Source: Betaproteobacteria bacterium (GTDB lineage: Bacteria; Pseudomonadota; Gammaproteobacteria; Burkholderiales; Burkholderiaceae_C). Taken from it: a DNA stretch of 64,000 bases. Positions 3,006 through 57,932 of this stretch are shown here, piece by piece. The notes beneath the pieces are model-generated. The model was not told the DNA's origin and did no database searches. It worked only from the letters and a program-made list of their open reading frames with translations. The position numbers and the translations under genes are program-made. Position 1 is the first letter of the stretch. Every line of letters starts with the position of its first letter. The stretch lies in assembly GCA_013289985.1 (NCBI GenBank), contig JABCYW010000001.1, positions 79,772 through 143,771 on the forward strand. Reading direction: 5' to 3'.

Positions 3006-3388
3006 GTGGGGGTGTTCGAGAAGTTTGTTTTGTCGGTCGCTGCCGGGGTCGGCGTCGCGGCGGCCGGCGCACGGCCGGAGTCAGCTTGCAGCAGGCCCGT
3101 GAACAGGCCCGCGGCGGAGGGTTCAGATGGGGACGCTTTCGCGTGATCCCAGGGCATATTGTCGGGGACCTCGTCGCACCCGCCGTGACACCACGGATTG
3201 CAACGCAGGATGCGCCAGCCGGCCAGGCCGGCGCCGACGAGGGCGCCGTGCTTTTCAAGCGCCTGTATCGCGTAGGCGGAGCAGGTGGGCGTGAAGCGGC
3301 AGCTCTGGCCCACCCACGGGCTCAGCAGCAGGCGATAGGCACGCACCACGCCCACGAGCAGCGTGCGGGGCAGGTGCAGCAGCAGCAT
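3002..3388 (-). CDS. yidD: membrane protein insertion efficiency factor YidD, with a C-terminal extension
   Basis: The conserved core SPWVGQSCRFTPTCSAYA...RCNPWCHGGCDEVP is present. The Met at 3388 overlaps the rnpA stop as TGATG, suggesting translational coupling. The stop overlaps the yidC start. Confidence 0.8.
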   Translation of the reverse strand: MLLLHLPRTLLVGVVRAYRLLLSPWVGQSCRFTPTCSAYAIQALEKHGALVGAGLAGWRILRCNPWCHGGCDEVPDNMPWDHAKASPSEPSAAGLFTGLLQADSGRAPAAATPTPAATDKTNFSNTPT

Positions 3389-4092
3389 CAGGCCGCGCAT
3401 GGCGGTCCTTCCGGCGGCCTGGCCGTGGCGGGGCGAACCTTGCCGCCCTTGCCTTTGGCGGGCAGTTCGCCCGATGGCCGCGGCTTCAGGCGATCGCGTT
3501 CACCGCGAACGGCCCGGTCGAACAGCGCGCGCAGCTCTTCGCGCGCCGCTTCCTTCAAGGCATCGGACGCGGCGCTCGGGAACTCTTTCGGATCGAACGG
3601 CGAGCGCTGGCGCACCACCCACAGGCCGGGTTCCAGCTGCGGCGCGCAGGCGGACGCCACGTTGCGGATCTGGCGCTTGACCAGTGTTCGCGTGACCGCT
3701 CGCTTGGCGTGGCGCTTGGGCACGACGAGTCCCAGCCAACGAGCGATGCCGCCCGGAGCCGTCGGGGTTTCCACCATCCCGGACGGGCCCGGAACCTGCG
3801 GGTCGTCCACATCCGTCACCGAGGAATCGGAGCGGCCTGTGGATAACTCTGTAGACAAGCTGGCGGTAACCGGTGCATGACCGGTCGCGTCGACCTCGAG
3901 GCTCGCCGTCGCCAAAACGGGTGCCATCACGGAACGCACTCCCGGCCGCTTCAAAGGCAGCGGCCTGCCGACCAGGTGATGGACGGCAAAATGGGGGCTG
4001 CGCAGACGCATCGGCGTCGCGAGCACGCGCACGTAGTCCGCCGGCCGGACGATGCGGCCGAGCAGCTGGGAATCGAGGTCGCCTGCGGTCAT
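3388..4092 (-). CDS. rnpA: ribonuclease P protein component RnpA, carrying an about 75-aa internal low-complexity insertion
   Basis: An RnpA-like N-terminus is followed by the conserved RWLGLVVPKRHAKRAVTRTLVKRQIRNV motif. The two are split by a Ser/Thr/Pro/Ala/Val-rich in-frame insert. The gene sits in the rpmH-rnpA-yidD-yidC order. Confidence 0.8.
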   Translation of the reverse strand: MTAGDLDSQLLGRIVRPADYVRVLATPMRLRSPHFAVHHLVGRPLPLKRPGVRSVMAPVLATASLEVDATGHAPVTASLSTELSTGRSDSSVTDVDDPQVPGPSGMVETPTAPGGIARWLGLVVPKRHAKRAVTRTLVKRQIRNVASACAPQLEPGLWVVRQRSPFDPKEFPSAASDALKEAAREELRALFDRAVRGERDRLKPRPSGELPAKGKGGKVRPATARPPEGPPCAA

Positions 4093-4237
4093 GGCCGCCG
4101 GCCCGGTGTGCCGTGAAGCAGGAATTCAATGCGCTGCGGCGACGTCCTCGACGAGGAGGGCGACGCGGAGACGACGAAGGCGGCAGAAGCCGCCCTGGAA
4201 TTCCTTACCGGCGAAGCGTTCAGTCCGACGTCTGGAA

Positions 4238-4372
4238 TCAGACGGCGAGACGCTTGCGACCCTTGGCGCGACGAGCAGCGATGACGCTGCGGCCGCCACG
4301 GGTCTTCATGCGGACGAGGAAGCCGTGCGTACGGGCGCGACGGACTTTGGAGGGCTGGTAGGTACGCTTCAT
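4238..4372 (-). CDS. rpmH: 50S ribosomal protein L34
   Basis: Minus-strand translation gives [44 protein letters not shown], 44 aa. It is below the ORF-track size cutoff and was found by hand. Confidence 0.95.
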
Positions 4373-4482
4373 GGATGAAAATCTCCGGGGAACCCTCGAT
4401 TAGAGCAGAGAAACGCATTACGAGTCAACGACTTGGCACGAGCGGCCGTACGATGCGGGGGGATTGACCGCGCGCCGATTTC

Positions 4483-4491
4483 TGTGGATAA
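4483..4491 (-). promoter_or_regulatory. perfect DnaA box (TTATCCACA) in the rpmH-dnaA intergenic region
   Basis: tgtggataa at 4483-4491 is the reverse complement of the consensus DnaA box TTATCCACA. It lies about 60 bp upstream of dnaA. Confidence 0.6.
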
Positions 4492-4542
4492 CCGTCATTT
4501 CGCCGTTCAGGCGCGGGTAGAATCTGCCGGCTTGAGAAGAAC

Positions 4543-4551
4543 TTGTCCACA
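4543..4551 (+). promoter_or_regulatory. DnaA box variant (TTGTCCACA) abutting the dnaA start codon
   Basis: ttgtccaca sits immediately before the ATG at 4552. This is the classic position for dnaA autoregulation. Confidence 0.5.
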
Positions 4552-6006
4552 ATGTCCCTAGACCTTTGGCACCGGAGTTGCGAGCGCCTCGCCACCGAGT
4601 TGCCCGAACAGCAATTCAGCACCTGGATCCGGCCCTTGCCGCCCGCCGATTTCACCGACGTGGGCGACGGCACGGTGGCGCTCGTGCGCGTGCCCAACCG
4701 CTTCAAGCTCGACTGGATCCGCTCGCAATACGGCTCGCGCATCGAGTCGGTGCTCACCGAACTCGCCGGCAAGCCGGTGCGCCTCGAGCTGGCGCTCGCG
4801 CCGCGCGAGGCGCCGGCCCCCGGCCACGCCCACGTGCCCACCGGCAGCGGCTTCATCACCAGCAATCCGCCGCAGCGCATCGGCGCCGTGTTCGAGCAGG
4901 CGCTGGCCAACGCGCCGACGAACGGCCATGCCGCGGCGAGCGCGCCCGCGCAGCCGCGGCCCATGCACATCGCGCCGGCCATGAACTCGCACCGGCTCAA
5001 CCCGGCGCTCACCTTCGACACGCTGGTGGCCGGCCGCGCCAACCAGATGGCCCGCACCGCGGCGCTGCACGTGGCCGGCGCGCCTGGCGCCATGTACAAC
5101 CCGCTGTTCGTCTACGGCGGCGTGGGCCTGGGCAAGACCCACCTGGTGCACGCCGTGGGCAACCAGCTGCTCAAGGACAAGCCCGACGCCCGCGTGCTGT
5201 ACCTGCACGCCGAGCAGTTCATCTCCGACGTCGTCAAGAACTACCAGCGCAAGACCTTCGACGAACTGAAGGCCAAGTACCACTCGCTGGACCTGCTGCT
5301 GATCGACGACGTGCAGTTCTTCGCCGGCAAGGAACGCACGCAGGAAGAATTCTTCAATGCGTTCGAGGCGCTGCTGTCGCGCCGCGCGCACATCATCATG
5401 ACGAGCGACACCTATCCCAAGGGTCTGGCCGACATCGATGAACGCCTCACCAGCCGCTTCGACTCCGGCCTGACGGTGGCCATCGAGCCGCCCGAGCTGG
5501 AGATGCGCGTGGCCATCCTGATCCGCAAGGCCGAAGGCGAGCAGGCGCAGATGCCCGAGGAAGTGGCGTTCTTCATCGCCAAGAACGTGCGCGCCAACGT
5601 GCGCGAGCTCGAGGGCGCGCTGCGCAAGGTGCTGGCCTACTCGCGCTTCTCGCAGAAGGACATCAACATCGCCCTGGCGCGCGAGGCGCTCAAGGACCTG
5701 CTGTCCATCCAGAACCGCCAGATCTCCGTCGAGAACATCCAGAAGACGGTGGCCGATTTCTACAAGATCAAGGTGGCCGACATGTACAGCAAGAAGCGCC
5801 CGGCGAGCATCGCCCGCCCGCGCCAGATCGCCATGTACCTGGCCAAGGAGCTCACCCAGAAGAGCCTGCCCGAGATCGGCGAGCTCTTTGGCGGCCGCGA
5901 CCACACCACCGTGCTGCACGCCGTGCGCAAGATCGGCGGCGAGCGGCAGAAGAACACCGAACTGAACCAGCAACTCCACGTCCTGGAACAGACCCTGAAG
6001 GGATGA
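4552..6006 (+). CDS. dnaA: chromosomal replication initiator DnaA
   Basis: Walker [10 protein letters not shown], an AAA+ core, and a C-terminal DNA-binding domain (RDHTTVLHA). The ORF track begins at the TTG at 4543; the ATG at 4552 (MSLDLW) is preferred. Confidence 0.95.
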
Positions 6007-7490: not shown

Positions 7491-10103
<2,613 letters not shown>

Positions 10104-10116
10104 TGTGTCGGGTGAC

Positions 10117-10190
10117 GTAGGGCGCCGAAGTAATTGCGATTGGCGCCAAAGCTGTGCGACTGGGCGCCACAGTTCTTGCGATCGCCCTAC
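10117..10190. repeat. Left copy of an about 73-bp imperfect direct repeat made of about 21-bp TGCGAYT-containing units and bracketed by the inverted ends GTAGGGCG/CGCCCTAC
   Basis: gtagggcgccgaagtaattgcgattggcgccaaagctgtgcgactgggcgccacagttcttgcgatcgccctac. By eye it is about 75% identical to the block at 13295-13367. Confidence 0.5.
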
Positions 10191-10457: not shown

Positions 10458-11162
10458 CTACAGGCCAGAACTGCTCGTGCGTTCGCCCTCAACCTGCTCC
10501 TTCGGCAACCCCACAGTGAGGTAAGGAGCAATGAGTCTCGCGACCTCTTTGCAGCTCCGCACAAAGTCCACAAGCTGTTCCTTCGACGGTTGCCAGCCCA
10601 TGATGGACGTGATGGTCTCATTGCGCACAGCCAGCAACCCGAACACCGCATCAAGCAGCTTGGGCTCAAGCAGCTTCCATTCCGCAGCTTTCCGAAACAG
10701 CTTGTCTGCTGTCATCACATGAGATCCGACAGGTGCACGCATGGAGACGACTTGGCGAAGTAGTTCCTCCACCTCTATCCAAGCACGCTCAATGATCGAC
10801 AGCGGAGGAACGCCGGCCTGAACTTGTTCCGCCGCAGACAGCGAGTATTCGTCTGCGTAGTGCAGGCGATCAAAGTCTTCGGGAATGGAGACAGGACGAG
10901 GAATGTCATCGGAAGCAGCATCCCTTGTCTTCGCCCTCACCATGCGCTTCTTACGCAGCGCGTCGAGATCGAGCCGCACCCGATCCATCGTCTTTTCAAA
11001 CGTGAGCTTCAGTTTGCCTTTGTCATACTCGGCACTCTTGATGCGGTCAACAAGGCGCACGAGGGCACCGCGCACGATCACGATCACAACGCCACCCAGC
11101 AGGATGACGACGGCCGGCCAGCGCACCGCTTCAATGATCTTCGCCAACCCCGCAGCATCCAT
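10458..11162 (-). CDS. Hypothetical membrane-anchored protein, paralog 1 (N-terminal TM, charged linker, C-terminal helical domain with an AW.EVE...GWQP signature)
   Basis: The 234-aa product has a TM segment WPAVVILLGGVVIVIV. It is paralogous along its whole length to the upstream ORF 11247-12125 (shared LIDRVK after the TM, AW(I/Q)EV(E/R), (S/T)I(M/S)GWQP). It lies in the lower-GC block. Confidence 0.6.
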   Translation of the reverse strand: MDAAGLAKIIEAVRWPAVVILLGGVVIVIVRGALVRLVDRIKSAEYDKGKLKLTFEKTMDRVRLDLDALRKKRMVRAKTRDAASDDIPRPVSIPEDFDRLHYADEYSLSAAEQVQAGVPPLSIIERAWIEVEELLRQVVSMRAPVGSHVMTADKLFRKAAEWKLLEPKLLDAVFGLLAVRNETITSIMGWQPSKEQLVDFVRSCKEVARLIAPYLTVGLPKEQVEGERTSSSGL

Positions 11163-11246: not shown

Positions 11247-12044
11247 TCAATCGGCTACCTTCGGTAGACCCAGCGCAAGGTGCATGCTCAATAGTGTCAC
11301 GACCTCCCCCGCGTTCTGCACGTATTCCAAGACTTGAACCTGGTTCGGCTGCCAACCAATCGTGCTCATCGCATCGTTGTGGATCATCATGAGTTCAACG
11401 ACAGCTTTGTAGAGCGAACCCGTGAGCTTGCCTGCTCGATGTGCACGCCCAACAAGCTGCTCATCCGGAATGCCATCGAGCGACCACCAGTCCGTCGCAG
11501 TCTTCTCCAATCCGAGCACTTTGTAGAGCATCCCACGCACCTCTTGCCAAGCGTGGTGAATCACAACGGGTGGAGCATTCTTGTAGACCTCCATCATGCG
11601 GAGCCAGTTGCGCTGGTCATCCTCGTAGTCCTTCATGCTGAACATGGGAGTGCCAGGCAGAGGCATCGCGGCATCTCTGAAGCGATAGGGCTTTGGCTGG
11701 CCTTGCGCAGCAGCTTCAGTATCAACCTCTTCGATCATGCGCCGGACGCCCTTGTCCGTTGCCTCCGGCTTGACATCCTCGACAGTTGGTTTCTGCTTCT
11801 CAACCTCTTCCTTGGCAACCGCGACGTTCTCCTTGACTTCGCCCAGTTGGTCGGCGATGTCAACGGTGACGCCTTCTTTGCTTGCACTGACCTTCTTGAC
11901 GCGATCGATGAGCGCACCGATCTTGGCCTTCTGCTGGACGAGGAAGACGACCACCACGAGCGGCCAAGCAAACGCAGCAATGAGCGTGACAAGGTGCCCA
12001 GTCTGCTTCTCGATGAAGCTCAGTATCAGCTCAGCCCATTCCAT
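11247..12044 (-). CDS. Hypothetical membrane-anchored protein, paralog 2
   Basis: TM segment LVTLIAAFAWPLVVVVFLV, a coiled/charged linker, and a C-terminal domain homologous to paralog 1. The ORF track starts at 12125; the start chosen here is the Met (MEWAEL) at 12044 just before the TM. The true start is uncertain. Confidence 0.55.
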   Translation of the reverse strand: MEWAELILSFIEKQTGHLVTLIAAFAWPLVVVVFLVQQKAKIGALIDRVKKVSASKEGVTVDIADQLGEVKENVAVAKEEVEKQKPTVEDVKPEATDKGVRRMIEEVDTEAAAQGQPKPYRFRDAAMPLPGTPMFSMKDYEDDQRNWLRMMEVYKNAPPVVIHHAWQEVRGMLYKVLGLEKTATDWWSLDGIPDEQLVGRAHRAGKLTGSLYKAVVELMMIHNDAMSTIGWQPNQVQVLEYVQNAGEVVTLLSMHLALGLPKVAD

Positions 12045-12322
12045 GCCCTGCTCCTCTTCTTCTTTGCCGCGAAGTCTCCCACACCAGCGACTGCAGCGCA
12101 CGAAGCTCATTGCCTGCGCCGCCATCGTCCTGCTCTCTGCTCACGTCCAGGCATACGTTTTCATTTTGCTGCGAGCGGCAGACCTCATTCCGCGCTCATT
12201 GATACAGCCACCCCTATTTCGGGTGGTTGCGCGAAGCGCCCGGCATCGGCCCAATGATCGGTCGCGCGCCACTTCAGCATTGAATTGCGTAGCCCGTCCA
12301 CCTACACGGTACTGACCGCCAC

Positions 12323-12817
12323 ATGTCGAACGTTCTCAAGGACATCTACAAGTCCAAGGGTAAGCTGGAAAACTACTTTGACGACAAAACGCCAGTTGCT
12401 CTCTGGCGTGGTCAAAAGCGAGATCTGATCAAGAAAAAGCGGGGGGGCCTCTACCCTGAGCTTACCGGCTTCGTGCGTGGCGACGGAACGTTTCGCATTC
12501 CCGACGTCGATGTCTTCGAGCGCGAGAGCGACGGCGTCACGATGGTCCGCGGTTGTCGGTGTGTTGCAGGCGAAGGCGACTACCGCGGTGTGTCGACGTT
12601 CGACGTCATGCCTGATCTTGGCAAATCATTCATGTACTTCCGTATCCCGGGTGGCACGGCAATCCCGGAAGCGCTTGCGGTGACCAAGGACACGTTCAAC
12701 CGACGCTTCGGTGGTTACCATTACACCGTTGCGCCGAAAGACGACATGCCGTTGAGCCTCTTCCTTGTCTGGCTGGGTGCGATCGAGGCGAGCCTGAAGG
12801 CTGAAGGAGGCAAGTGA
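12323..12817 (+). CDS. Hypothetical 164-aa protein, candidate toxin/effector of a two-gene module
   Basis: An ORF in the lower-GC block with no confidently recognised domain. It contains FERES and GGYHYTVAPKDD motifs. Its stop overlaps the start of the following 87-aa ORF as ATGA. Confidence 0.5.
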   Translation: MSNVLKDIYKSKGKLENYFDDKTPVALWRGQKRDLIKKKRGGLYPELTGFVRGDGTFRIPDVDVFERESDGVTMVRGCRCVAGEGDYRGVSTFDVMPDLGKSFMYFRIPGGTAIPEALAVTKDTFNRRFGGYHYTVAPKDDMPLSLFLVWLGAIEASLKAEGGK

Positions 12818-13077
12818 TGACCGAACCGATCCGATTGACCGACCAGGCAGTGATCACCGCTGCCCGGGCCTTGATCATGGAAAACAAGCGCTGTGCGGCG
12901 AAGCTCAAGGACGACTCGCTTTCAGACGAACAGGCCGAGTATTTCGGTGACTACGTCCAGTTGTTGGACGCAGCGATGGGCGAGATCGAGGCGCTCTACG
13001 TCGAGCGTCAGGCGACGAATCGGCACATGGGGTCGTTCGACGCGCTCTACGAGTCGGTCTTGCTCGACAAGGACTGA
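12814..13077 (+). CDS. Hypothetical 87-aa acidic helical protein, candidate immunity/antitoxin partner
   Basis: It has a 4-nt overlap with the upstream ORF. It is small, acidic and predicted all-helical (DEQAEYFGDYVQLLDAAMGEIEALYVERQ), which is typical of cognate immunity proteins. Confidence 0.45.
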   Translation: MMTEPIRLTDQAVITAARALIMENKRCAAKLKDDSLSDEQAEYFGDYVQLLDAAMGEIEALYVERQATNRHMGSFDALYESVLLDKD

Positions 13078-13113
13078 TGCGGGTCAGCCTGTTTTTCCGC
13101 AAGCCCGATCCGA

Positions 13114-13150
13114 GCGCCCTGGGCTCGACGGAGGGCGCGGCGGGATATTT
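13114..13150 (+). terminator. Candidate intrinsic terminator after the two-gene module
   Basis: Inverted repeat GCGCCCT-(11 nt)-AGGGCGC at 13114-13138 is followed by the AT-rich stretch gggatatttcattta. Confidence 0.3.
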
Positions 13151-13280
13151 CATTTATCGTGTCACACCCGTCGGAACCTGTCAGTAATCGTGTCACTTCT
13201 CTTGGACAGGCGTGACACGGAAAGTGAAAAAGGCGAGCAAAATCAATGGTGTTCATTTCACTTTTCGTGTCACCCGACAT
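13147..13280. repeat. Array of four CGTGTCAC-core repeats (three direct, one inverted) with interleaved inverted repeats, in an AT-richer non-coding stretch
   Basis: tcgtgtcac at 13157-65, 13188-96 and 13265-73; gtgacacg at 13212-19. Repeats 1 and 3 share an extended TTCATTT..TCGTGTCACMCCCG context. Interleaved inverted pairs cctgtc/gacagg and cgtgtcac/gtgacacg follow an A-B-A'-B' arrangement. Confidence 0.5.
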
Positions 13281-13294
13281 GAGTTGTACGCCGC

Positions 13295-13367
13295 GTAGGG
13301 CGCCAGAGTAAATGCGACTCGCGCCACAGTTCTGCGACTGAACGGCGCTAGTTGGTGCGACTACCGG
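13295..13367. repeat. Right copy of the about 73-bp imperfect direct repeat (TGCGACT units)
   Basis: gtagggcgccagagtaaatgcgactcgcgccacagttctgcgactgaacggcgctagttggtgcgactaccgg. It aligns with 10117-10190 and ends 1 nt before the ATG at 13368. Confidence 0.45.
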
Positions 13368-13577
13368 ATGTCGCGAATCCTTCCCAGACACTGGCTCGCG
13401 CTGGCTCAAAAGTCTGGCGTCCCCGACTTGGCGCAGTCGATGGTTCTGCTCGCAAAGGGCGTCGAGACTGCGCTGGAAGTTGCGAAGGAGATGTTGCCCG
13501 AAGGCTTTCCGGATCTTCTCTGGCACTCCATCGCGACCGGCACAAGTCGCCAGGCAAAGACTTTCTTGGCCGCGTAG
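13368..13577 (+). CDS. Possible small helical protein of 69 aa, low confidence
   Basis: The ORF starts immediately after the right repeat block and has a helical composition. There is no domain support, and the competing ORF 13352-14263 in another frame looks spurious. Confidence 0.25.
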   Translation: MSRILPRHWLALAQKSGVPDLAQSMVLLAKGVETALEVAKEMLPEGFPDLLWHSIATGTSRQAKTFLAA

Positions 13578-13607
13578 CTGACGGCGGAGGAAGTCACCAA
13601 GCAGGAT

Positions 13608-14231
13608 TTGATATCCATGCCGTCCATTCTGACAATCATTCGCGCAAGCCTCTCGGCGTTGGCCCTCGCTGCCATCGGTGCGCAACTGGTGCTGCACGTT
13701 GGCGCGTCGCACAGCGTTCTGAACTTCTTCAGCTATTTCACGAATCTCTCCAACCTGGTCGCCGCGTCGGTCTTGCTCCTTTGCGCGTTCGACGTGGGGT
13801 CAAGCAGCAAGGGATCGATGACGCTGGCGCGATACGTGTCGGCTGTGAACATGGCCGTGGTTGGTCTCGTGTTTGCCGTGCTGCTCCGAAACACGGATTT
13901 CGGGACGCTTCTTCCATGGGTCAACTTCGTCCTCCACTACGTCATGCCCGTCGCTGTCGTCCTGGACTGGCTGGCCGATCCACCGGGGCTGAAGCTGCAC
14001 TCGAACAGCCACTTTCTTCCGCTCCTGTTCCCCGCGTTCTATCTCGTGTATGTCTTGCTGCGCGGCGCTTCGACAGGTTGGTATCCCTATCCGTTTCTGA
14101 ACCCGGCGAACGTTGGTGGCTACGGCGGGGTCGCCGCGTACTCTCTGGGCATCGCCGTCGCAGTCCTTCTGGCGAGTTGGTTGTTGCTCGCAGCTGGCAA
14201 CCGCCGCGCAAGCGCGAAATCGCGCGCCTGA
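13608..14231 (+). CDS. Pr6Pr-family (FAR-17a/AIG1-like) integral membrane protein
   Basis: A 207-aa product with multiple TM helices and conserved Trp/Pro residues (LHYVMPVAVVLDWLADPP, FLPLLFPAFYLVYVLLRG). Its GC content is still somewhat lower than the core genome. Confidence 0.6.
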   Translation: MISMPSILTIIRASLSALALAAIGAQLVLHVGASHSVLNFFSYFTNLSNLVAASVLLLCAFDVGSSSKGSMTLARYVSAVNMAVVGLVFAVLLRNTDFGTLLPWVNFVLHYVMPVAVVLDWLADPPGLKLHSNSHFLPLLFPAFYLVYVLLRGASTGWYPYPFLNPANVGGYGGVAAYSLGIAVAVLLASWLLLAAGNRRASAKSRA

Positions 14232-16458: not shown

Positions 16459-18213
16459 GTGAGGATGAGCGAAGATTTCAAGCCCGGGACGAGGCCGCTG
16501 CTGCGGCTGGCCGGGCTCGATGCCGTGCGAGCATTCGTGTCGCGTGCAGAAGAGACGCACGTGATCTGGACCGCCGTCGTCGCATTGATGTTGCGGCTGT
16601 ACCAGGAACCCGATGCCAAGGCCCGACGCGAGTCCGGGCCGACGGACTCGCAGGTGGTCACGGCCCTGCGCGTCGTGCTGGGCGAGAACTTCGGCAGCGA
16701 GGCGGCCGACTACACCTCCTGGGCGCTGGTGCGCTACGGCTGCCGCCAGAAGCCCACCATGAGCGCCCTGCATCCGTGGGAAGGCCTGATGTTCGAGTGG
16801 CAGCAGCGCCGCGCCAGCGCGCCGCGCATCGCCCTGATGCTGCGCGACGGGGGCATGGAAAAGCCGCTCAAGGCCGCGTCGCTCGAGTCCATCGACGGCT
16901 GGGTCACCGACCCGGTGAAGGCGCTTGGCGAGGCCACCGAGATCGTGGAGGCCCTGTTCGGCGAGCGCCTCGTCTCGTACAACCTGCACGACGACGGCAC
17001 CACGCCCGCGCACGACACGCTGTTCGGCGGCCTGGTGGCCTCGCTGCTGCCGCAGGGCCGCCTGCAACAGCTGCGTCAGGCGCTGGTGCGCACCGAGGAC
17101 CGCGCGGTCTGGCGCGTCGAGTATGTGTTCGAGGACGAGACCGCCGTCTTCGAGGCCCCGGCCCGCGGCTCCACGATGGACGTGGACGCCGTGATGGCGG
17201 CCGTCGACGCCCTGATGGAGCGCCTCGGCCGGCCCGAGCGCGTCTACCGCCTGGCCCCGGGCCGCTACAACAACGGCGAGATCGGCGTGTTCGTGCTCGC
17301 CGACTCCGGCAGGTTTCCCGAGATCGCCTGGCGCCTGCGCCTGCCGCTGCTGCGCAGCCCCAGCCTGGCCGACCTGCCGCCGGGCATCGCCACGGCCGCG
17401 CCCGAGCCGCTGCGTGTCGGCGCGCGCCCGATGGCGCCGCGCCCGCCCTCGGTGGTGGCCGCGGCCGCCCGCGAGGCGGCGCAGGACGACGTGGCCGTGG
17501 CCACGGGACCGGGCGCCACGGCGCCGATGTCGCTGCTCGAATCGCAGTTCGTCACCCCGATGCCGGCGCCGTCCGGGCCGGTGGAGCGCGCCGCCGACGC
17601 GACGATGAAGCAGCTGATCAACGCGCTGCGCCGCTCGTTCGGCGCCGGCCGGCTGCTGCAGGGCGGCCGCTGGATGAAGCAGGTGCGCACCGAGCCGCCG
17701 GCGTGGATGACGGCCGGCGGCGACCCCGTGCGCATCTTCTACGAGAAGCAGGAGACGCTGTTCCGCAAGGGCCGCATCGGCTGGGGCGCGCTGGTGCAGG
17801 CCGACGACGGCGTGTTCGCGCGGGGCGAGGACGACCTGCCGGGCGTGCTCGTCTACAGCGAGGACGAATACTTCGACGCCCGCCCGATGGAGCTCGCCGC
17901 CATCGGCGCGCGGCTGCTGGAGTTGAAGTCCGCCGGCGGCGCGTCCGACCTGGCCCGCTTCGCCCAGGGCGTGCGCAACGACACCGGCCGTCCATTGGGC
18001 CTGACGGTGCCCGCGGCGCTCAGCGCCAAGGAGCCGTTCCTGAGCAGCTTCGTGGCGATCCGCGCGCACCTGCCCGACGGCATCCTGGCCGGGGCCTGGT
18101 TCCCGGTGCTGATCCACTCGTCCAGCGTCGTGCCGATGATCGTGCCGTCCACGTTCTGGCCGCCCGCGCTGCTGCAGGCCTGGAACGAGCGGCGCATGGT
18201 GCTCGAGGCCTGA
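16459..18213 (+). CDS. hypothetical protein of 584 aa with no recognisable domain and a central Pro/Ala-rich linker
   Basis: A long ORF with native high GC, divergent from the ATPase gene. No motif was recognised. Confidence 0.55.
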   Translation: MRMSEDFKPGTRPLLRLAGLDAVRAFVSRAEETHVIWTAVVALMLRLYQEPDAKARRESGPTDSQVVTALRVVLGENFGSEAADYTSWALVRYGCRQKPTMSALHPWEGLMFEWQQRRASAPRIALMLRDGGMEKPLKAASLESIDGWVTDPVKALGEATEIVEALFGERLVSYNLHDDGTTPAHDTLFGGLVASLLPQGRLQQLRQALVRTEDRAVWRVEYVFEDETAVFEAPARGSTMDVDAVMAAVDALMERLGRPERVYRLAPGRYNNGEIGVFVLADSGRFPEIAWRLRLPLLRSPSLADLPPGIATAAPEPLRVGARPMAPRPPSVVAAAAREAAQDDVAVATGPGATAPMSLLESQFVTPMPAPSGPVERAADATMKQLINALRRSFGAGRLLQGGRWMKQVRTEPPAWMTAGGDPVRIFYEKQETLFRKGRIGWGALVQADDGVFARGEDDLPGVLVYSEDEYFDARPMELAAIGARLLELKSAGGASDLARFAQGVRNDTGRPLGLTVPAALSAKEPFLSSFVAIRAHLPDGILAGAWFPVLIHSSSVVPMIVPSTFWPPALLQAWNERRMVLEA

Positions 18214-45614: not shown

Positions 45615-47505
45615 CCTTGGCGGCGAGCAACTGCCCCACTTCGTGATGCAAGCCCTCGGGCGTGACCGCGTCGGCCGCGATCTGCGGGCCCACGTTCAGG
45701 CCCACCTTGCTGAACAGCCCGCGGCGGAACGGCTTGCTCATGGCGGCGCCTTCCACGCGCGAGAAGAACGAGCCCCACAGGTTCTGCAGCGCGAGCGGGA
45801 TCACCGGCACCGGGCGCGTCTCGAGGATGCGCATCACGCCGCCCTTGAAGGGCTTCAGCGCGCCGTCGTTGGTGATGCCGCCCTCGGGGAAGATGCCCAG
45901 CAGGTCGCCCTCGGCCAGCACCTGGTCGGCCGCGACGAAGGCGGCCTCGTAGGCGGCCGGATCGTCGTTCCTGGACGCGATGGGAATCGCCTTGGCCAGG
46001 CGGAAGAACAGGCCCAGCCCCGGGGTGCGGAAGATGCGCGCGTCCATGAGGAAGCGGATCGGGCGCGGGCTGGCCGCCATCAGCAGCACCGGGTCGACGA
46101 AGCTCACGTGGTTGCACACGACGATGGCCGGCCCGGTGGCGGGGATATTGGCGTCGCCCTGGATCCGGAAGCGGTAGACGGTGCGCGTGAGGACGAAGGC
46201 GATGAAGCGCAGCAGGTACTCCGGCACCAGGCAGAAGATGTAGCCCGCCACGACGGCGTTGGCGATGCCGGTGATCAGGAACACGCCGCCGATGCTCACG
46301 CCGAAGTGCAGGAGCGCGCCGGCGATCAGCGAGCTGGCGATCATGAACAGCGCGTTCAGGATGTTGTTGGCAGCAATGATGCGGGCCCGGTGGCTAGCGA
46401 GCGCCCGCATCTGGACGAGCGCATACATCGGCACGCTGTAGAGGCCGGCGCTGAGCGAGAGCATGAACAGATCGATCATCGGCCGCACGTGCTGGCCCTG
46501 GTGGACGAAGTCGGACAGGCCCCACAGCGCGCTCGCCGGCGCCGCGAGATGGCTCACCGAGAAGTACAGGTCGATCGCGAAGATGCTCATGCCGATGGCG
46601 CCCAGCGGCACGAGGCCGATTTCCACCTGGCGGCGCGACAACACCTCGCACAGCAGCGAGCCGATGCCCACGCCCACCGAGAACAGCACCAGCAGCAGCG
46701 ACGCCACGTGCACGTCGCCGTGCAGCACGTCCTTGGCGAACGAAGGGAACTGCGACAGGAACGTCGCGCCGAAGAACCACATCCACGAGATGCCCAGCAG
46801 CGACCGGAACACGACGACGTCGGTGCGCGCCAGCTTCAGGTTGCGCAGCGTCTCGGTGACCGGATTCCAGTTGATCTTGAGCTGGTCGTCGTGCGGCGGC
46901 GACGCGGGAATGGCCTGGGCCGTCAGCCGGCCGATGACCGCGATCGCGAGACAGGTGCCGCCGGCGAGCGCCGGGCCCATGCCGGGCACCACGACGAGAA
47001 GGCCGCCGGCGAGCTGGCCCAGCAGGATCGCGACGAAGGTGCCCATCTCGACCATGCCGTTGCCGCCGGTGAGCTCGTGGTCGTCGAGGTGCTGCGGCAG
47101 GTAGGCGTACTTCACCGGGCCGAACAGCGTGGAGTGCACGCCCATCAGGAACAGGCACAGCAGCAGCACCACCACCTGCTGCGCGACGAAGCCCCAGGTG
47201 GCGAGCACCATGATCAGGATCTCGAACGACTTGATGAAGCGCATCACGCGCGCCTTGTCGTATTTGTCGGCCAGCTGCCCGCTGGTGGCCGACAGCAGCA
47301 CGAACGGCAGGATGAACACGGCGCTGATGACGAGGCCGGCCTTCTCGGGCGGCAGCCAGGACACGTTGAGCTGGTAGGTGACCAGCACCGTGAACGCGAA
47401 CTTCAGGACGTTGTCGTTGCCCGCGCCGAAGAACTGCGTCCAGAAGAACGGCGCGAAGCGGCGTTGCGAGAGAAGCGCGAACTGGCTGGGATGGGCTTGG
47501 CTCAT
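45607..47505 (-). CDS. fused lysophospholipid transporter (LplT-like MFS) and acyltransferase (Aas/PlsC-like)
   Basis: An N-terminal MFS domain (12 TM) is followed by a PlsC acyltransferase motif NHVSFVDPVLL. Starts at MSQAHPSQF; the ORF-track N-terminal extension was rejected. Confidence 0.75.
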   Translation of the reverse strand: MSQAHPSQFALLSQRRFAPFFWTQFFGAGNDNVLKFAFTVLVTYQLNVSWLPPEKAGLVISAVFILPFVLLSATSGQLADKYDKARVMRFIKSFEILIMVLATWGFVAQQVVVLLLCLFLMGVHSTLFGPVKYAYLPQHLDDHELTGGNGMVEMGTFVAILLGQLAGGLLVVVPGMGPALAGGTCLAIAVIGRLTAQAIPASPPHDDQLKINWNPVTETLRNLKLARTDVVVFRSLLGISWMWFFGATFLSQFPSFAKDVLHGDVHVASLLLVLFSVGVGIGSLLCEVLSRRQVEIGLVPLGAIGMSIFAIDLYFSVSHLAAPASALWGLSDFVHQGQHVRPMIDLFMLSLSAGLYSVPMYALVQMRALASHRARIIAANNILNALFMIASSLIAGALLHFGVSIGGVFLITGIANAVVAGYIFCLVPEYLLRFIAFVLTRTVYRFRIQGDANIPATGPAIVVCNHVSFVDPVLLMAASPRPIRFLMDARIFRTPGLGLFFRLAKAIPIASRNDDPAAYEAAFVAADQVLAEGDLLGIFPEGGITNDGALKPFKGGVMRILETRPVPVIPLALQNLWGSFFSRVEGAAMSKPFRRGLFSKVGLNVGPQIAADAVTPEGLHHEVGQLLAAKVI

Positions 47506-53860: not shown

Positions 53861-54384
53861 TCGGCACCCCAAGAGTCAATCAGCTTCAGTAAGCGCTTCC
53901 ATCGCGTGAGCGATTTTCCCGGAACTGGATGGGCTGATTGTGGAGGGTCTTGGGTGAACGATGGCTTTGGCCATCGTTTCAAATTAATCTTTCAAAGCGA
54001 GTGAATCTTCAAGCGGTCGAGGTACCTGAAGTTCACCAACCACCGCGCGGAGTTCCGTTCGTTGTCGAAGCATCACCACCGACAACAAATTTAAATTTAT
54101 CGAAGCACAGCTCAACCATTGGCACGAATTCGGAGTGCGTGTCGTCTGCACTCCGCGTCTTAGGGAGCGACAACACCTTCAACGCCGATACGATCTTCAG
54201 AATGGAATTCATGTCTATCTACCTGCTAAATGCTGTTGTTCGCCCCTGTAGAAGCATTGAAACAGCTAGCAGTCCGATCGGACACTGTCAGGTCTTACAG
54301 GGTCGCAGCCACGCATGGGGCCTTGACCGGTAGGCCGAGGCACGGCCTGAAGGCCCGCAGATTGGGCACCAACCCGAAGGATTT

Positions 54385-55119
54385 CTAGTTCAGCAGCCCG
54401 AGACGGATGGCCTTCAGCACCGCTTGGTGCTTGTTCACGCAAGCGAGCTTGTGCATGGAATTTTGCAGGTGCAAGACTGCCGTACGCTCGGAAATGCTCA
54501 TGATGGTGCCGACTTCCCAGGCGGTCTTCCCTTCCATCGTCCAACGCAGGGCTTCGAGTTCGCGTGGAGTGAGCGTTGGCGCGTCCAATCGCTTGGGCGG
54601 GTTCGGCGTGAAGAGCCTAAAGGCGGCGTCCTGTGCATGGACGGCAAACAGCTGCAGGTCAGCCACGATGCGCGTGACGTTGCGCATGTTCTTGGGAAGG
54701 GGCCTGTCCCGATCCACGCCTATGAAGAAGTGGCGTCCACCCGGCAAGTGCATGGCCATCGCTATTCCTGTGCCGTAGCCGTGCTGGGACTGAAATTCCC
54801 ATAGATTTCCCAGACCTCGCGAAACGTAAGTCTCCTGATCCCAAATGATCGGCACTGCCGACTTCTTGCAGTGCTGCATGACCGGATCATGCTGCGCGCC
54901 AAAGTCGAGATCGGAATACCACTCCATGTACTCAGCAGGAGTGTTGTTCACAGTCTGGAACTCAGTGTTCGAGGCCGAATGATCGGTGACTACTGCAGCC
55001 GTTACGAACTTGAAGTCGAGGTGCTCCGCGAAGCTGACTACCTGCGCGGAAAAATCCTCGATGGTCGTGGTCTCCAAGATCGAGAGGTGGCTCCCCTGAA
55101 GCATGCGCGCTGCCATCAC
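54385..55119 (-). CDS. LuxR-family autoinducer-binding transcriptional regulator, solo 1
   Basis: The autoinducer-binding domain has the conserved W..Y..DP..W..G pattern (EWYSDLDFGAQHDPV, PIIWDQ, GYGTGIA). The C-terminal LuxR HTH reads LTPRELEALRWTMEGKTAWEVGTIMSISERTAVLHLQNSMHKL. Confidence 0.8.
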   Translation of the reverse strand: MMAARMLQGSHLSILETTTIEDFSAQVVSFAEHLDFKFVTAAVVTDHSASNTEFQTVNNTPAEYMEWYSDLDFGAQHDPVMQHCKKSAVPIIWDQETYVSRGLGNLWEFQSQHGYGTGIAMAMHLPGGRHFFIGVDRDRPLPKNMRNVTRIVADLQLFAVHAQDAAFRLFTPNPPKRLDAPTLTPRELEALRWTMEGKTAWEVGTIMSISERTAVLHLQNSMHKLACVNKHQAVLKAIRLGLLN

Positions 55120-55244
55120 TGACCTCGGTTCACGTCATGCGTGCAAGTGCTTCGCGTCCGGCAAGTCCATGACCGCGAAGCGCGGGCGCGACAAATTGGG
55201 CCTTCCCAGAAGGACAAGCGGGTGTGGGGGGAGACATGGTGCAC

Positions 55245-55265
55245 CCTGACAAGTTTGACAGCTAG
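55245..55265. promoter_or_regulatory. lux-box-like imperfect palindrome CTG-N10-CAG
   Basis: ccCTGacaagtttgaCAGctag lies about 130 bp upstream of solo 1. Related copies sit at 55578-55597 and 54285-54300 (CTGtcaggtcttaCAG). Confidence 0.3.
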
Positions 55266-55756
55266 TCCAAGCAACGCAATATCTCCAGACTCCGGGGCAT
55301 GCTGACAAGGACATCAACCACAGCCATGCTTGCTGCCCCAATCTTGCCATCGCCGTTGGCGCCCTATTCTTGGCCACCCGTATTTTGGCAGGCAAACCTT
55401 CGACGAACGCCCAAATTTGTACACCTCTCCACTCATGTGACGCGTGCCGGCGGGCAAAAGCAACCATGCTGCGGCAGTACGCTCTGGGGCGGCTTCTCGG
55501 CCGATGGCGATGCCGGCTTGGCTTGGGACTGGGTTGAAATCGAGCAAGGAGTTGTAGCCATGCGCGACCCTATGTCCCTGATGACAAATTTACAGCTAGT
55601 TGCAGAAAACGGTGAGGTGCTCCAGCCGATCGCTGCAGCGTTGCACTTCAATCAGTTCGTACGCCGGCTGCCTTGGCAAGATGAAGTTCGCAGGTTGCTC
55701 CACGCTGCTTAGTACCAAGAGATCAGTTTTTCAATGCGCTAAACCGCGAATCGCGG

Positions 55757-56494
55757 CTAATCGCAGCGGACTAAGCCTAGTCGTATTGCCCGCAAAACTG
55801 CTTCATATTTTGTCCCGCAGGCAAGCTTTCTCATAGCGGATTGCAACCGTTCAGATGCGACTTCTTCCGTTGTCGACATCAGCTCTGCCACGCTTTTCGT
55901 TATCTTGCCGTCCATTGTCCATCGAAGTGCGTCAATTTCTCGGGACGTAAGGGCAGATCCTTCATCCGATGAGGTGACCGGCGGCAGGCATAGATCAAAA
56001 GCTGCTGCCTGGGAGTACGCAGCAAAAGACCGAAAGTCGTCTAGTGCTCGGTGGTTGTAGGTACTTCGCGAGTTATGCGCCTTGCTGCCGCTTAGACCAA
56101 TCATGTAGTGCCGGCCCTTGCGATAATGCATCGCAGTTGCGATGCCTGTTTTGTAGCCATGTGCAGCTTGATAGTCCCAAAGGTCTCTTACTCCAGCGGC
56201 TGAATAGGTATCGACATTCCAAACGATTGGCGACGACCGATTTTTGCAATGCTGACTCACCGGATCTAATTTACCTTTCTCTAAATTGTGAAAATCGTCA
56301 AGAAATTCTTGAGGTGCGTTCGTTATGGTCTGAAATTCTGTGAACGTCTCTGAGTGATCTGTAACTACCAACGCAGCAGCGAACTCATAGCCGAGATGAT
56401 TGGCGAAGCTGACTAGCTGCGCGAGAAATGCCGCCTCGGACTTGCTCTCCAGAACGTCAAGACATCTGTTTTTCATAGCGAGTTCCATATGCAT
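55757..56494 (-). CDS. LuxR-family autoinducer-binding transcriptional regulator, solo 2, paralogous to solo 1
   Basis: The two align along their whole length (LAQLVSFANHLGYEF / AQVVSFAEHLDFKF; ...DPVSQHCKNRSSPIVW...; C-terminal HTH LTSREIDALRWTMDGK). Confidence 0.8.
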   Translation of the reverse strand: MHMELAMKNRCLDVLESKSEAAFLAQLVSFANHLGYEFAAALVVTDHSETFTEFQTITNAPQEFLDDFHNLEKGKLDPVSQHCKNRSSPIVWNVDTYSAAGVRDLWDYQAAHGYKTGIATAMHYRKGRHYMIGLSGSKAHNSRSTYNHRALDDFRSFAAYSQAAAFDLCLPPVTSSDEGSALTSREIDALRWTMDGKITKSVAELMSTTEEVASERLQSAMRKLACGTKYEAVLRAIRLGLVRCD

Positions 56495-56759
56495 CGGCCC
56501 TTCTCAGATGTGAGGGTGCAAGTTAGCGACCTCGAACGGAAGACGGAGGTGAAATTGCACTTCGGCGACTGTTCCCCTGTGCTTCTCCCGCGATTCGCGC
56601 TCAACACGCAGTGGCGGGTACCTGCGAAGCTGCGTTGAATCGGCAGTGCTCGACCAGAGTAGCTCAAGAAGAACACTAACATCCTCCGCGCCGCCACTGC
56701 ATCGCCAGGTTAGGGTATCGAAGCCCCTGGCTCCCTTGGCGAATGCGACGCTCTCGGTC

Positions 56760-57932
56760 CTACTGCGCCGCCCGCCTCGTCAACTGCCGACTCACGAACA
56801 TCAACGCCGCCACCGTCAGCACGGCGCAGATCAGCAGCCCGGGGGCGACATCGAGTGCGCTGATGGGGGCGTTCTTCAGGACGCGGTTCATCAGGGTGGA
56901 CTGTGCCAGCGCGGGCACCCACAGGTTCCAGGCGGACTCGCCTTCCTGGTTGAACAGGCTCACCATGGGCGTCAAGGCGACGGCGAGCACGAGCACGACG
57001 GTGTTGGCCTGCGCTTCCTTGTGGGTCTTGCAGCGGATGGCGATGGCCATCATCAGGGCGGACAGGGCCGCGGCGAGCGGGGCGAGCAGGCCGATGAACC
57101 AGGCGGCCTCGACCCAGCCGAATCGGAACAGCGCGGCGAGCGACTCGCTGCGCAGCAGGCTCTGCGCGGGCAGGAAGCTCATGCACGACAGCACTGCGAT
57201 CAGCAGGCCCAGCGCGAACACCGCGCCCCACTTGCCCACCACCAGGGCCATGCGCGCGGCGGGCGTGGCGAGCAGCGGCTCCAGCGATCCGCGTTCGCGC
57301 TCGCCGGCGGTGGTGTCGAGGGCGGCGTTGAGGGCGCCGTACAGGACGGCCATCATCACGAACATGGGCACCATGCTGGTGAGCTGGGCGGCGCGCGAGG
57401 CGTTGTCGGCGATGTCGTGCTCGTCGACGCTGGACACGTTCATCACACCGGGTGCGACGCCGCGGGCGATCAGGCGCAGCGAGGCCTGTTCCTGCCCGAA
57501 GCCCTGCAGCAGCCGCTCGATCGCGCCGACACCGGCCTGCGCGCGGCCGTTGGCGCTGCTGTAGACCAGCTGGATCCGCGGCGCCTGGCCGTGGGCGAGG
57601 TCGTCCTCGAAATTCGCGGGCACGATCACGACCGGATCGCCCAGCTTGCTGTCCTTGAGCTGGCTCTCCCAGTCGGCGGGGGCCGTCCTGACGATGAAGG
57701 TCTGGCGCTCGAGGTAGTTGCGCAGCGTGGGCGCGGCGTCCAGGCCGATCGCGACGATCTCGCGCGCCTCGGCACGCTTCTCGTACTTGCCCATCAGCGA
57801 CGACAGCAGCACGAGCATCAGCGGCCCGATGGCGATCGAGGTGAAGAACACCACCATCAAGGTGCGACGGTCGCGCAGCGCGTCCTTGAGCTCCTTGACG
57901 AACACCGTCCACATCGCGGCTGGATTGCTCAT
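56760..57932 (-). CDS. ABC-2 type transporter permease
   Basis: A 390-aa product with an N-terminal TM, a large extracytoplasmic loop and 5 C-terminal TM segments. Its start overlaps the ATPase stop as ATGA. Confidence 0.8.
   Translation of the reverse strand: MSNPAAMWTVFVKELKDALRDRRTLMVVFFTSIAIGPLMLVLLSSLMGKYEKRAEAREIVAIGLDAAPTLRNYLERQTFIVRTAPADWESQLKDSKLGDPVVIVPANFEDDLAHGQAPRIQLVYSSANGRAQAGVGAIERLLQGFGQEQASLRLIARGVAPGVMNVSSVDEHDIADNASRAAQLTSMVPMFVMMAVLYGALNAALDTTAGERERGSLEPLLATPAARMALVVGKWGAVFALGLLIAVLSCMSFLPAQSLLRSESLAALFRFGWVEAAWFIGLLAPLAAALSALMMAIAIRCKTHKEAQANTVVLVLAVALTPMVSLFNQEGESAWNLWVPALAQSTLMNRVLKNAPISALDVAPGLLICAVLTVAALMFVSRQLTRRAAQ

Follow-up and report, generated by a model that had tools for sequence, protein, structure and literature searches.

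What is the function of a cluster of short, ordered repeats that lies in the 64-kb stretch of DNA analysed here (the window), at the right edge of a 58%-GC stretch that starts just past gyrB in a window of about 70% GC? A preliminary description had listed three direct copies and one inverted copy of CGTGTCAC, followed by three TGCGACT units, and had read their order as function rather than drift. Both sets of repeats are real. The CGTGTCAC core occurs four times in the window, at 13158, 13189, and 13266 on the forward strand and at 13212-13219 on the reverse strand; this total is ordinary (3.8 expected), but all four copies fall within 116 bp. The true repeat unit is longer than the core, an 18-mer (TTTCAYTTWYCGTGTCAC) present in three direct copies and one inverted copy that span 13148-13273. 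With up to three mismatches allowed, the 18-mer matches the 64-kb window four times against 0.02 expected, and none of 100 shuffles reached four. The TGCGACT units lie at 13313, 13333, and 13356, as described. Consistent with the argument for function, the ordered 18-mers are predicted to be protein-recognition DNA.

We propose that the CGTGTCAC cluster, from 13141 to 13279, is very probably the left end of a Tn7-like cut-and-paste transposon, of which the window carries a non-autonomous fossil (Table 1). When one genome per species was scanned with the 18-mer, the matches were chance singletons spread over many phyla and ~25 loci in Burkholderiales. These ~25 loci have a 24-nt terminus, TTTCACTTTYCGTGTCACCCGACA, in common, and divergence begins directly outside it. 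About a dozen Burkholderiales loci share a ~140-nt architecture of four sites (start-to-start spacing 31/64/108) ending in ...GTGTCACCCGACA, and the four sites with the second one, LE2, inverted are kept in L079, L115/L133, L019, L138, L137, L136, L134, L100, L021, and L062. A profile of this left end, built without the window sequence and without its near-identical relative L079, matched the window at 13141-13279 with 80.7 bits (E = 3e-24), the match stopping at the last model position. L079 and the window have the whole left end and the toxin and immunity genes in common and split at the terminus base, 13279. Architecture and boundaries were established directly, and the cluster becomes a boundary marker that fixes the right edge of the island to base 13279. 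The window's two termini, TGTCGGGTGAC starting at 10106 and GTCACCCGACA ending at 13279, are of the 5'-TGT...ACA-3' type, which is likewise found in L138, L100, and L062.

Table 1. Coordinates of the predicted transposon end, its cargo, and the flanking features in the 64-kb window
Feature	Position	Strand	Basis or remarks
gyrB	7497-10103	+	ORF translation, Pfam GyrB domains; 3' end/stop is the family's attachment site
TGATG, left target-duplication position	10101-10105	+	gyrB stop codon plus 2 nt; junction read
TGTCGGGTGAC, putative 11-nt right-end remnant	10106-10116	+	Exact inverted copy of 13269-13279; right-end alignment
"Left-type" array, three GGCGCC...TGCGAYT units	10117-10190	+	Same type after gyrB in L143 and L145
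Cargo: two paralogous ORFs	10458-11162 and 11247-12125	-	BLASTP against each other, E = 1e-13
Cargo: Tse2-like ADP-ribosyltransferase toxin	12323-12817	+	PF18648, 43.5 bits (cutoff 26.6)
Cargo: 87-aa putative immunity protein	12814-13077	+	Start overlaps the toxin-gene stop
Left end (LE), Tn7-like element (very probable)	13141-13279	+	Profile match; ends at 13279, ...GTGTCACCCGACA
LE4, innermost predicted TnsB-type site	13148-13165	+	TTTCATTTATCGTGTCAC; copy 1 of the preliminary description
LE3, predicted TnsB-type site	13179-13196	+	TGTCAGTAATCGTGTCAC; copy 2; three mismatches to the 18-mer; identical in L079
LE2, predicted TnsB-type site	13212-13229	-	TTTCACTTTCCGTGTCAC; the inverted copy; inverted in every aligned relative
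AAATCAA between LE2 and LE1, candidate host-factor site	13240-13246	+	Columns invariant or at least 90% conserved in 12 left ends
LE1 plus terminal CCGACA, predicted outermost site and cleavage terminus	13256-13279	+	Copy 3; 18-mer at 13256-13273
TGAGT, right target-duplication position	13280-13284	+	Starts a copy of native post-gyrB sequence from the stop codon
"Right-type" array, three TGCGACT units	13294-13365	+	Native gyrB-downstream DNA outside the transposon
69-aa ORF, HipA-family C-terminal fragment	13368-13577	+	BLASTP E = 2e-6; outside the element

Since the window encodes no transposase, the Tn7-like assignment of its copy rests on the relatives. There we found a second type of end, consisting of three abutting ~22-bp sites, with the reverse complement of the gyrB 3' end as its outside flank. 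In 13 of the 15 related loci, the terminus of this right end (TGTCGGGTGACACGG...) lies 2-6 nt past the gyrB stop codon. The two ends are asymmetric in site number and spacing, with four spaced sites on the left and, in the relatives, three abutting sites on the right. A complete element is present in L138 (GCA_040960375.1, contig JBFOMN010001278.1), where the gyrB stop is followed by TAAGC, the right end (461-531), tnsABC-tniQ, the left end (16500-16647), and again TAAGC. This 16.2-kb insertion is flanked by a perfect 5-bp target duplication that takes in the stop codon, and carries, in order, an HTH_31 gene, tnsA (PF08722), tnsB (rve + Mu-transpos_C), tnsC (TniB), and a TniQ+HTH_17 gene. The same tns operon is found in L132-L137, with the four-site end 5-7 kb downstream of tniQ. 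All-against-all clustering of ORFs near gyrB-proximal ends (8-kb blocks, mostly from the gyrB side) gave no conserved transposase genes, only gyrB, dnaN, and dnaA being shared; Pfam searches of interior ORFs returned defence cargo and then a TniQ match in L115, in an ORF 5 kb inside the four-site end whose homologues form a family of ~600-aa TniQ-HTH_17 proteins.

Gene content, target site, and target duplication in the relatives can be read directly from such loci. The duplication is perfect in L062 (TCTGG) and matches at four of five positions in L100. L062 also shows how small a family member can be: a 1,254-bp mini-element (3713-4966) with both ends and a single HEPN (RiboL-PSP) gene. At L019 3953-4175, an older right end and a newer left end lie 4 nt apart, and because the old right end abuts the new left end we read this locus as stacked insertions at one site. 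Cargo in the relatives consists mostly of conflict systems (ABC-3C, HEPN, methyltransferases, HATPase_c_3, and helicases). We also noted a 140-aa HTH_31/HTH_3 (Xre-type) gene directly before tnsA in L133, L134, L135, L137, and L138, possibly a regulator that the transposon itself encodes.

By homology with Tn7 and the I-F3 CASTs, each 18-nt repeat would bind the family's DDE transposase, TnsB, and we infer that the four 18-mers are the TnsB-binding sites of a Tn7-like left end. LE1 would then stand 6 nt from the cleavage terminus, ...CCCGACA-3', with LE2 inverted and LE3 and LE4 direct. The AAATCAA motif between LE1 and LE2 is a candidate IHF-like site, through which a DNA-bending host factor may be brought in. 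It matches half of the IHF consensus, WATCAANNNNTTR; this half is invariant in the alignment of 12 left ends, in which the TTR half is not evident. In VchCAST, the IHF site lies between LE1 and LE2, which matches the position of AAATCAA (PMC13370975). In intact relatives, insertion has a fixed orientation, with the right end nearest to gyrB, and falls 2-6 nt past the gyrB stop with a 5-bp duplication; the 600-aa TniQ-HTH_17 selector would read the conserved gyrB 3' coding sequence. We presume this mode of recognition because the right end is gyrB-proximal and because insertions occur in genera without a downstream array.

How does this family compare with known systems? First, it resembles Tn7 of E. 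coli (Tn7L/Tn7R, attTn7/glmS) in its asymmetric ends, its 5'-TGT...ACA-3' termini, and its 5-bp duplication, in a tnsA-tnsB-tnsC-selector operon that reads inward from the right end, and in inserting in only one orientation, immediately after an essential conserved gene that stays intact. The left and right ends of Tn7 are themselves asymmetric, with spaced sites on the left and abutting sites on the right (PMC8649781, PMC13370975). The family differs from Tn7 in its target, the gyrB stop (insertion 2-6 nt past it) rather than glmS, in a left end with four sites of which the second is inverted, and in a selector made of TniQ fused to HTH_17 domains, with no tnsE seen. The inverted internal site LE2 departs from the textbook Tn7 arrangement and counts against the assignment. 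Second, the closest solved TnsB homologues of the family are those of the I-F3 CASTs (Tn6677/VchCAST and PseCAST), with E = 1.3e-66 and 8.5e-60, whereas the similarity to Tn7 TnsB is only distant (E = 1e-23). The left end of I-F3 CASTs likewise contains TnsB sites of ~20 bp at uneven distances and a motif between LE1 and LE2; by comparison, LE2 is inverted in the family and the left end has four sites, not three. Neither cas genes nor a CRISPR array was found in any relative examined, and targeting is therefore presumably guided by a protein, TniQ-HTH_17.

Tn7 relatives build genomic islands at attTn7, and the window copy is best compared with the tns-less remnants and islands at Tn7-family attachment sites: it keeps an end and cargo and has lost the transposition genes, and successive insertions are stacked in its relatives (L019). 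It differs from the known Tn7-site islands in that the attachment site is gyrB, a few kb from dnaA/dnaN, and in that a repeat array of the host has taken the place of the right end. Multiple ends that result from nested or adjacent Tn7-like insertions have been described (PMC8649781); we found no second left or right end elsewhere in the window.

The low-GC stretch after gyrB thus appears as a transposon-delivered toxin island. As read from the DNA, the window copy is a fossil that retains an intact left end, 3 kb of cargo, and a right end reduced to its first 11 nt. A right-end profile run over the window found no right end beyond the 11 nt at 10106-10116, and tblastn found no tns genes across the whole 64 kb. 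Because tnsA, tnsB, tnsC, and TniQ are all absent from the window, we regard the copy as a non-autonomous remnant rather than a full member of the family. The TGTCGGGTGAC 11-mer lies 2 nt past the gyrB stop, and a repeat array follows where right-end TnsB sites would be expected. The pentamers at the two target-duplication positions, TGATG and TGAGT, match at three of five positions. The order of the decay events is inferred, and the 11-mer at 10106 might not be a simple right-end truncation. The truncation reading is weakened by L143, a locus without a transposon, where copies of this 11-mer, identical to the transposon terminus, stand to either side of the gyrB-downstream array (192-202 and 278-288).

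Among the cargo genes, the Tse2-like toxin is 98% identical to its L079 counterpart over residues 58-164 (the L079 toxin is N-terminally truncated), and the 87-aa putative immunity protein is also 98% identical in L079. The latter matched no family, and its putative immunity role is suggested by gene position only; look-ups of this protein and of the window gyrB taught us nothing further. The two paralogous ORFs are 24% identical to each other and have a C-terminal GWQP...LPK region in common; no Pfam family scored above cutoff for them, and no homologue was present in any of the loci compared. L079 itself (3095-3880) is a MAG labelled Vitreoscilla that carries the window's left end and Tse2/immunity genes. 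Its likeness to the window reflects either a very recent transfer or a mis-binned contig, and the Vitreoscilla label may be a product of mis-binning.

The TGCGACT units had been described as the right flank of the repeat cluster. They turned out to be a separate feature outside the element, an array that natively follows gyrB in related genomes. The units are parts of ~21-23-bp repeats, GGCGCC-N-TGCGACT, and the window has two such arrays, one after each terminus, which are 83% identical over 47 nt and represent both sequence types. A metagenome scan yielded ~17 Burkholderiaceae contigs (within L139-L158) that carry, 12-17 nt past the gyrB stop, a ~75-nt array, GTAGGGCGCC ... GCGACTGGCCTAC, with GTAGGGCGCC as its head and often GGCCTAC as its tail; none of these ~17 contigs has a Tn7-like end. 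Arrays 79%-89% identical to the right-type array follow gyrB directly in L139, L141, L147-L150, and L152. We take the right-hand array of the window to be native flank because, together with the preceding TGAGTTGTACGCCGC, it resembles an empty site that starts at the stop codon, such as those in L155 (TGAGTTGTGG...) and L145. It would thus be the native post-gyrB array, displaced by 3.2 kb through the insertion. Spacers in such "empty" sites often resemble degenerate TGTAGGG termini, and a similar GTAGGGTGAC stands after the array in L148 (at about 4140-4150).

These arrays bear on a different reading of the island, namely as a complete and still-mobile non-autonomous element whose right end is made up of the 11-mer and the array at 10106-10190, the array being a second type of transposase-binding array. 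An array of three abutting 21-23-bp units about 12 nt after a TGT terminus, placed 5 nt after the gyrB stop, has the geometry of a Tn7-like right end, both window arrays are preceded by a pentamer that starts with TGA, and L150 has two arrays in tandem. Yet one TnsB binds both ends and the site sequence is normally shared between them, whereas the array units differ from the CGTGTCAC sites; there is no inverted copy of the array in the window; arrays follow gyrB in many contigs without any left end; and Burkholderia plasmid pM7012 (L006) has related arrays at 20 places, with no tns genes nearby. We therefore consider a still-mobile element improbable. A loose regular expression for further arrays in the window gave chance matches only, and the consensus RNA fold of the arrays is weak (-8.4 kcal/mol), with no compensatory pairs and no covariation. 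Hallmarks of REP/REPIN sequences are a GTAG head, a conserved hairpin, many dispersed copies, and an associated RAYT gene. For the array itself, a REP-like repeat, a set of protein-binding sites, and the fossil end of a transposon are all candidate identities.

Among the candidates in the preliminary description (operators, iterons, a structured RNA, or a recombination site), the recombination site came nearest to a transposon left end; the other candidates found no support. Reading the 18-mers as operator half-sites or iterons, to which a regulator or replication initiator encoded by the island would bind so as to control the downstream ORF or a replicon, would suit ordered direct and inverted repeats in an intergenic, AT-richer stretch, and intact relatives do have an HTH_31 gene beside tnsA. 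None of the island ORFs, however, is a regulator or rep gene. The 69-aa product of the downstream ORF, which had been proposed for a DNA-binding assay, matches the final ~64 residues of a HipA-family kinase toxin (a HipA_C protein; E = 2e-6), and because this is the extreme C-terminus of the toxin we regard the ORF as part of a broken gene, probably what remains of a truncated hipA, and not as a regulator or DNA-binding protein. A homology search with this ORF against 5.8 billion proteins matched only itself, on contigs that all have the same arrangement. No promoter-like site was present in 13078-13367, and a sigma-70 and terminator scan of 12900-13700 found nothing inside the cluster. Nor did the cluster match plasmids or phages: BLAST of 13078-13400 against both returned nothing for the CGTGTCAC part and real matches only to the TGCGACT array, and six single matches of the 18-mer in viral contigs are consistent with chance. 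In the relatives, the module is bordered by cargo on one side and by flanking DNA on the other, both of them unrelated between loci, and the boundary is sharp and marked by a target duplication. These observations make an operator or iteron array highly improbable.

Could the inverted copies instead fold into a structured small RNA or 3'-UTR element, by way of alternative hairpins or a pseudoknot? The cluster does fold at -47.2 kcal/mol (z = -3.1 against shuffles), with an 18-bp stem between 13212-13229 and 13256-13273, but this stem consists of two copies of one site in opposite orientation. Across 12 homologous ends, the check for fold and covariation that had been suggested gave pairing no better than column composition: the stem is paired at 82.4% against 79.8% in column shuffles, a level that 31 of 500 shuffles also reached, and compensatory pairs do not exceed the shuffled level. 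Relatives carry 4-7 mismatches in the 18 positions. As for the interleaved A-B-A'-B' inverted repeats of the preliminary description, the CCTGTC/GACAGG pair is present in the window sequence, but the arrangement is not kept even in the closest relative, L079, in which this pair is lost. No Rfam family rose above noise: at gathering and at permissive thresholds, the inverted repeat drew only spurious matches to miRNAs of plants and animals. A structured RNA is highly improbable. A generic REP- or MITE-like dispersed repeat without a specific partner protein, although it too would be intergenic and partly palindromic, has a negligible chance of being correct, given that the window has a single copy of the cluster, that elsewhere the cluster occurs only as a terminal module of Tn7-like elements or remnants, and that dispersed-repeat behaviour is seen only in the neighbouring TGCGACT array. 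DnaA boxes, parS half-sites, and Pho boxes were dropped for misfits in sequence or spacing. Integron attC sites were also dropped, and so were tyrosine-integrase arm sites, for which there is no integrase and, instead, 5-bp duplications and TGT/ACA termini.

The window feature is of an ordinary kind, a Tn7-like left end on a decayed island, and no mechanism involved is new. The lineage to which it belongs may be undescribed, since we found no account of gyrB as a Tn7-family attachment site in Benler 2021 or Faure 2023 (including supplements) or in full-text searches. We tentatively suggest, as a possibility somewhat short of an even chance, an undescribed Tn7-like lineage with a TnsB nearest to those of I-F3 CASTs, no CRISPR, and a TniQ-HTH_17 selector. 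Across Burkholderiales, this lineage would home to the gyrB stop, beside the dnaA-dnaN-gyrB origin region, and accumulate defence and toxin cargo there, and the second TnsB site of its left end would be obligatorily inverted; in the same suggestion, the GGCGCC/TGCGACT arrays might be right ends left behind, as fossils, by a sister lineage. Together, the relatives make up a Tn7-like family that targets gyrB, uses a compact protein selector, and has well-conserved ends. This family is useful for annotating defence islands in Burkholderiales, and could provide a natural means of integration at one site and in one orientation, next to a gene that is universally conserved.

Two further features of the window lie away from gyrB. 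The reverse strand at 46723-46844 contains a full-length match to the Burkholderia sRNA Bcj11 (RF02835, 108 bits), which assigns the window to Burkholderia or a close relative. A second low-GC stretch at 54001-57000 (56% against ~70%) suggests another acquired island.
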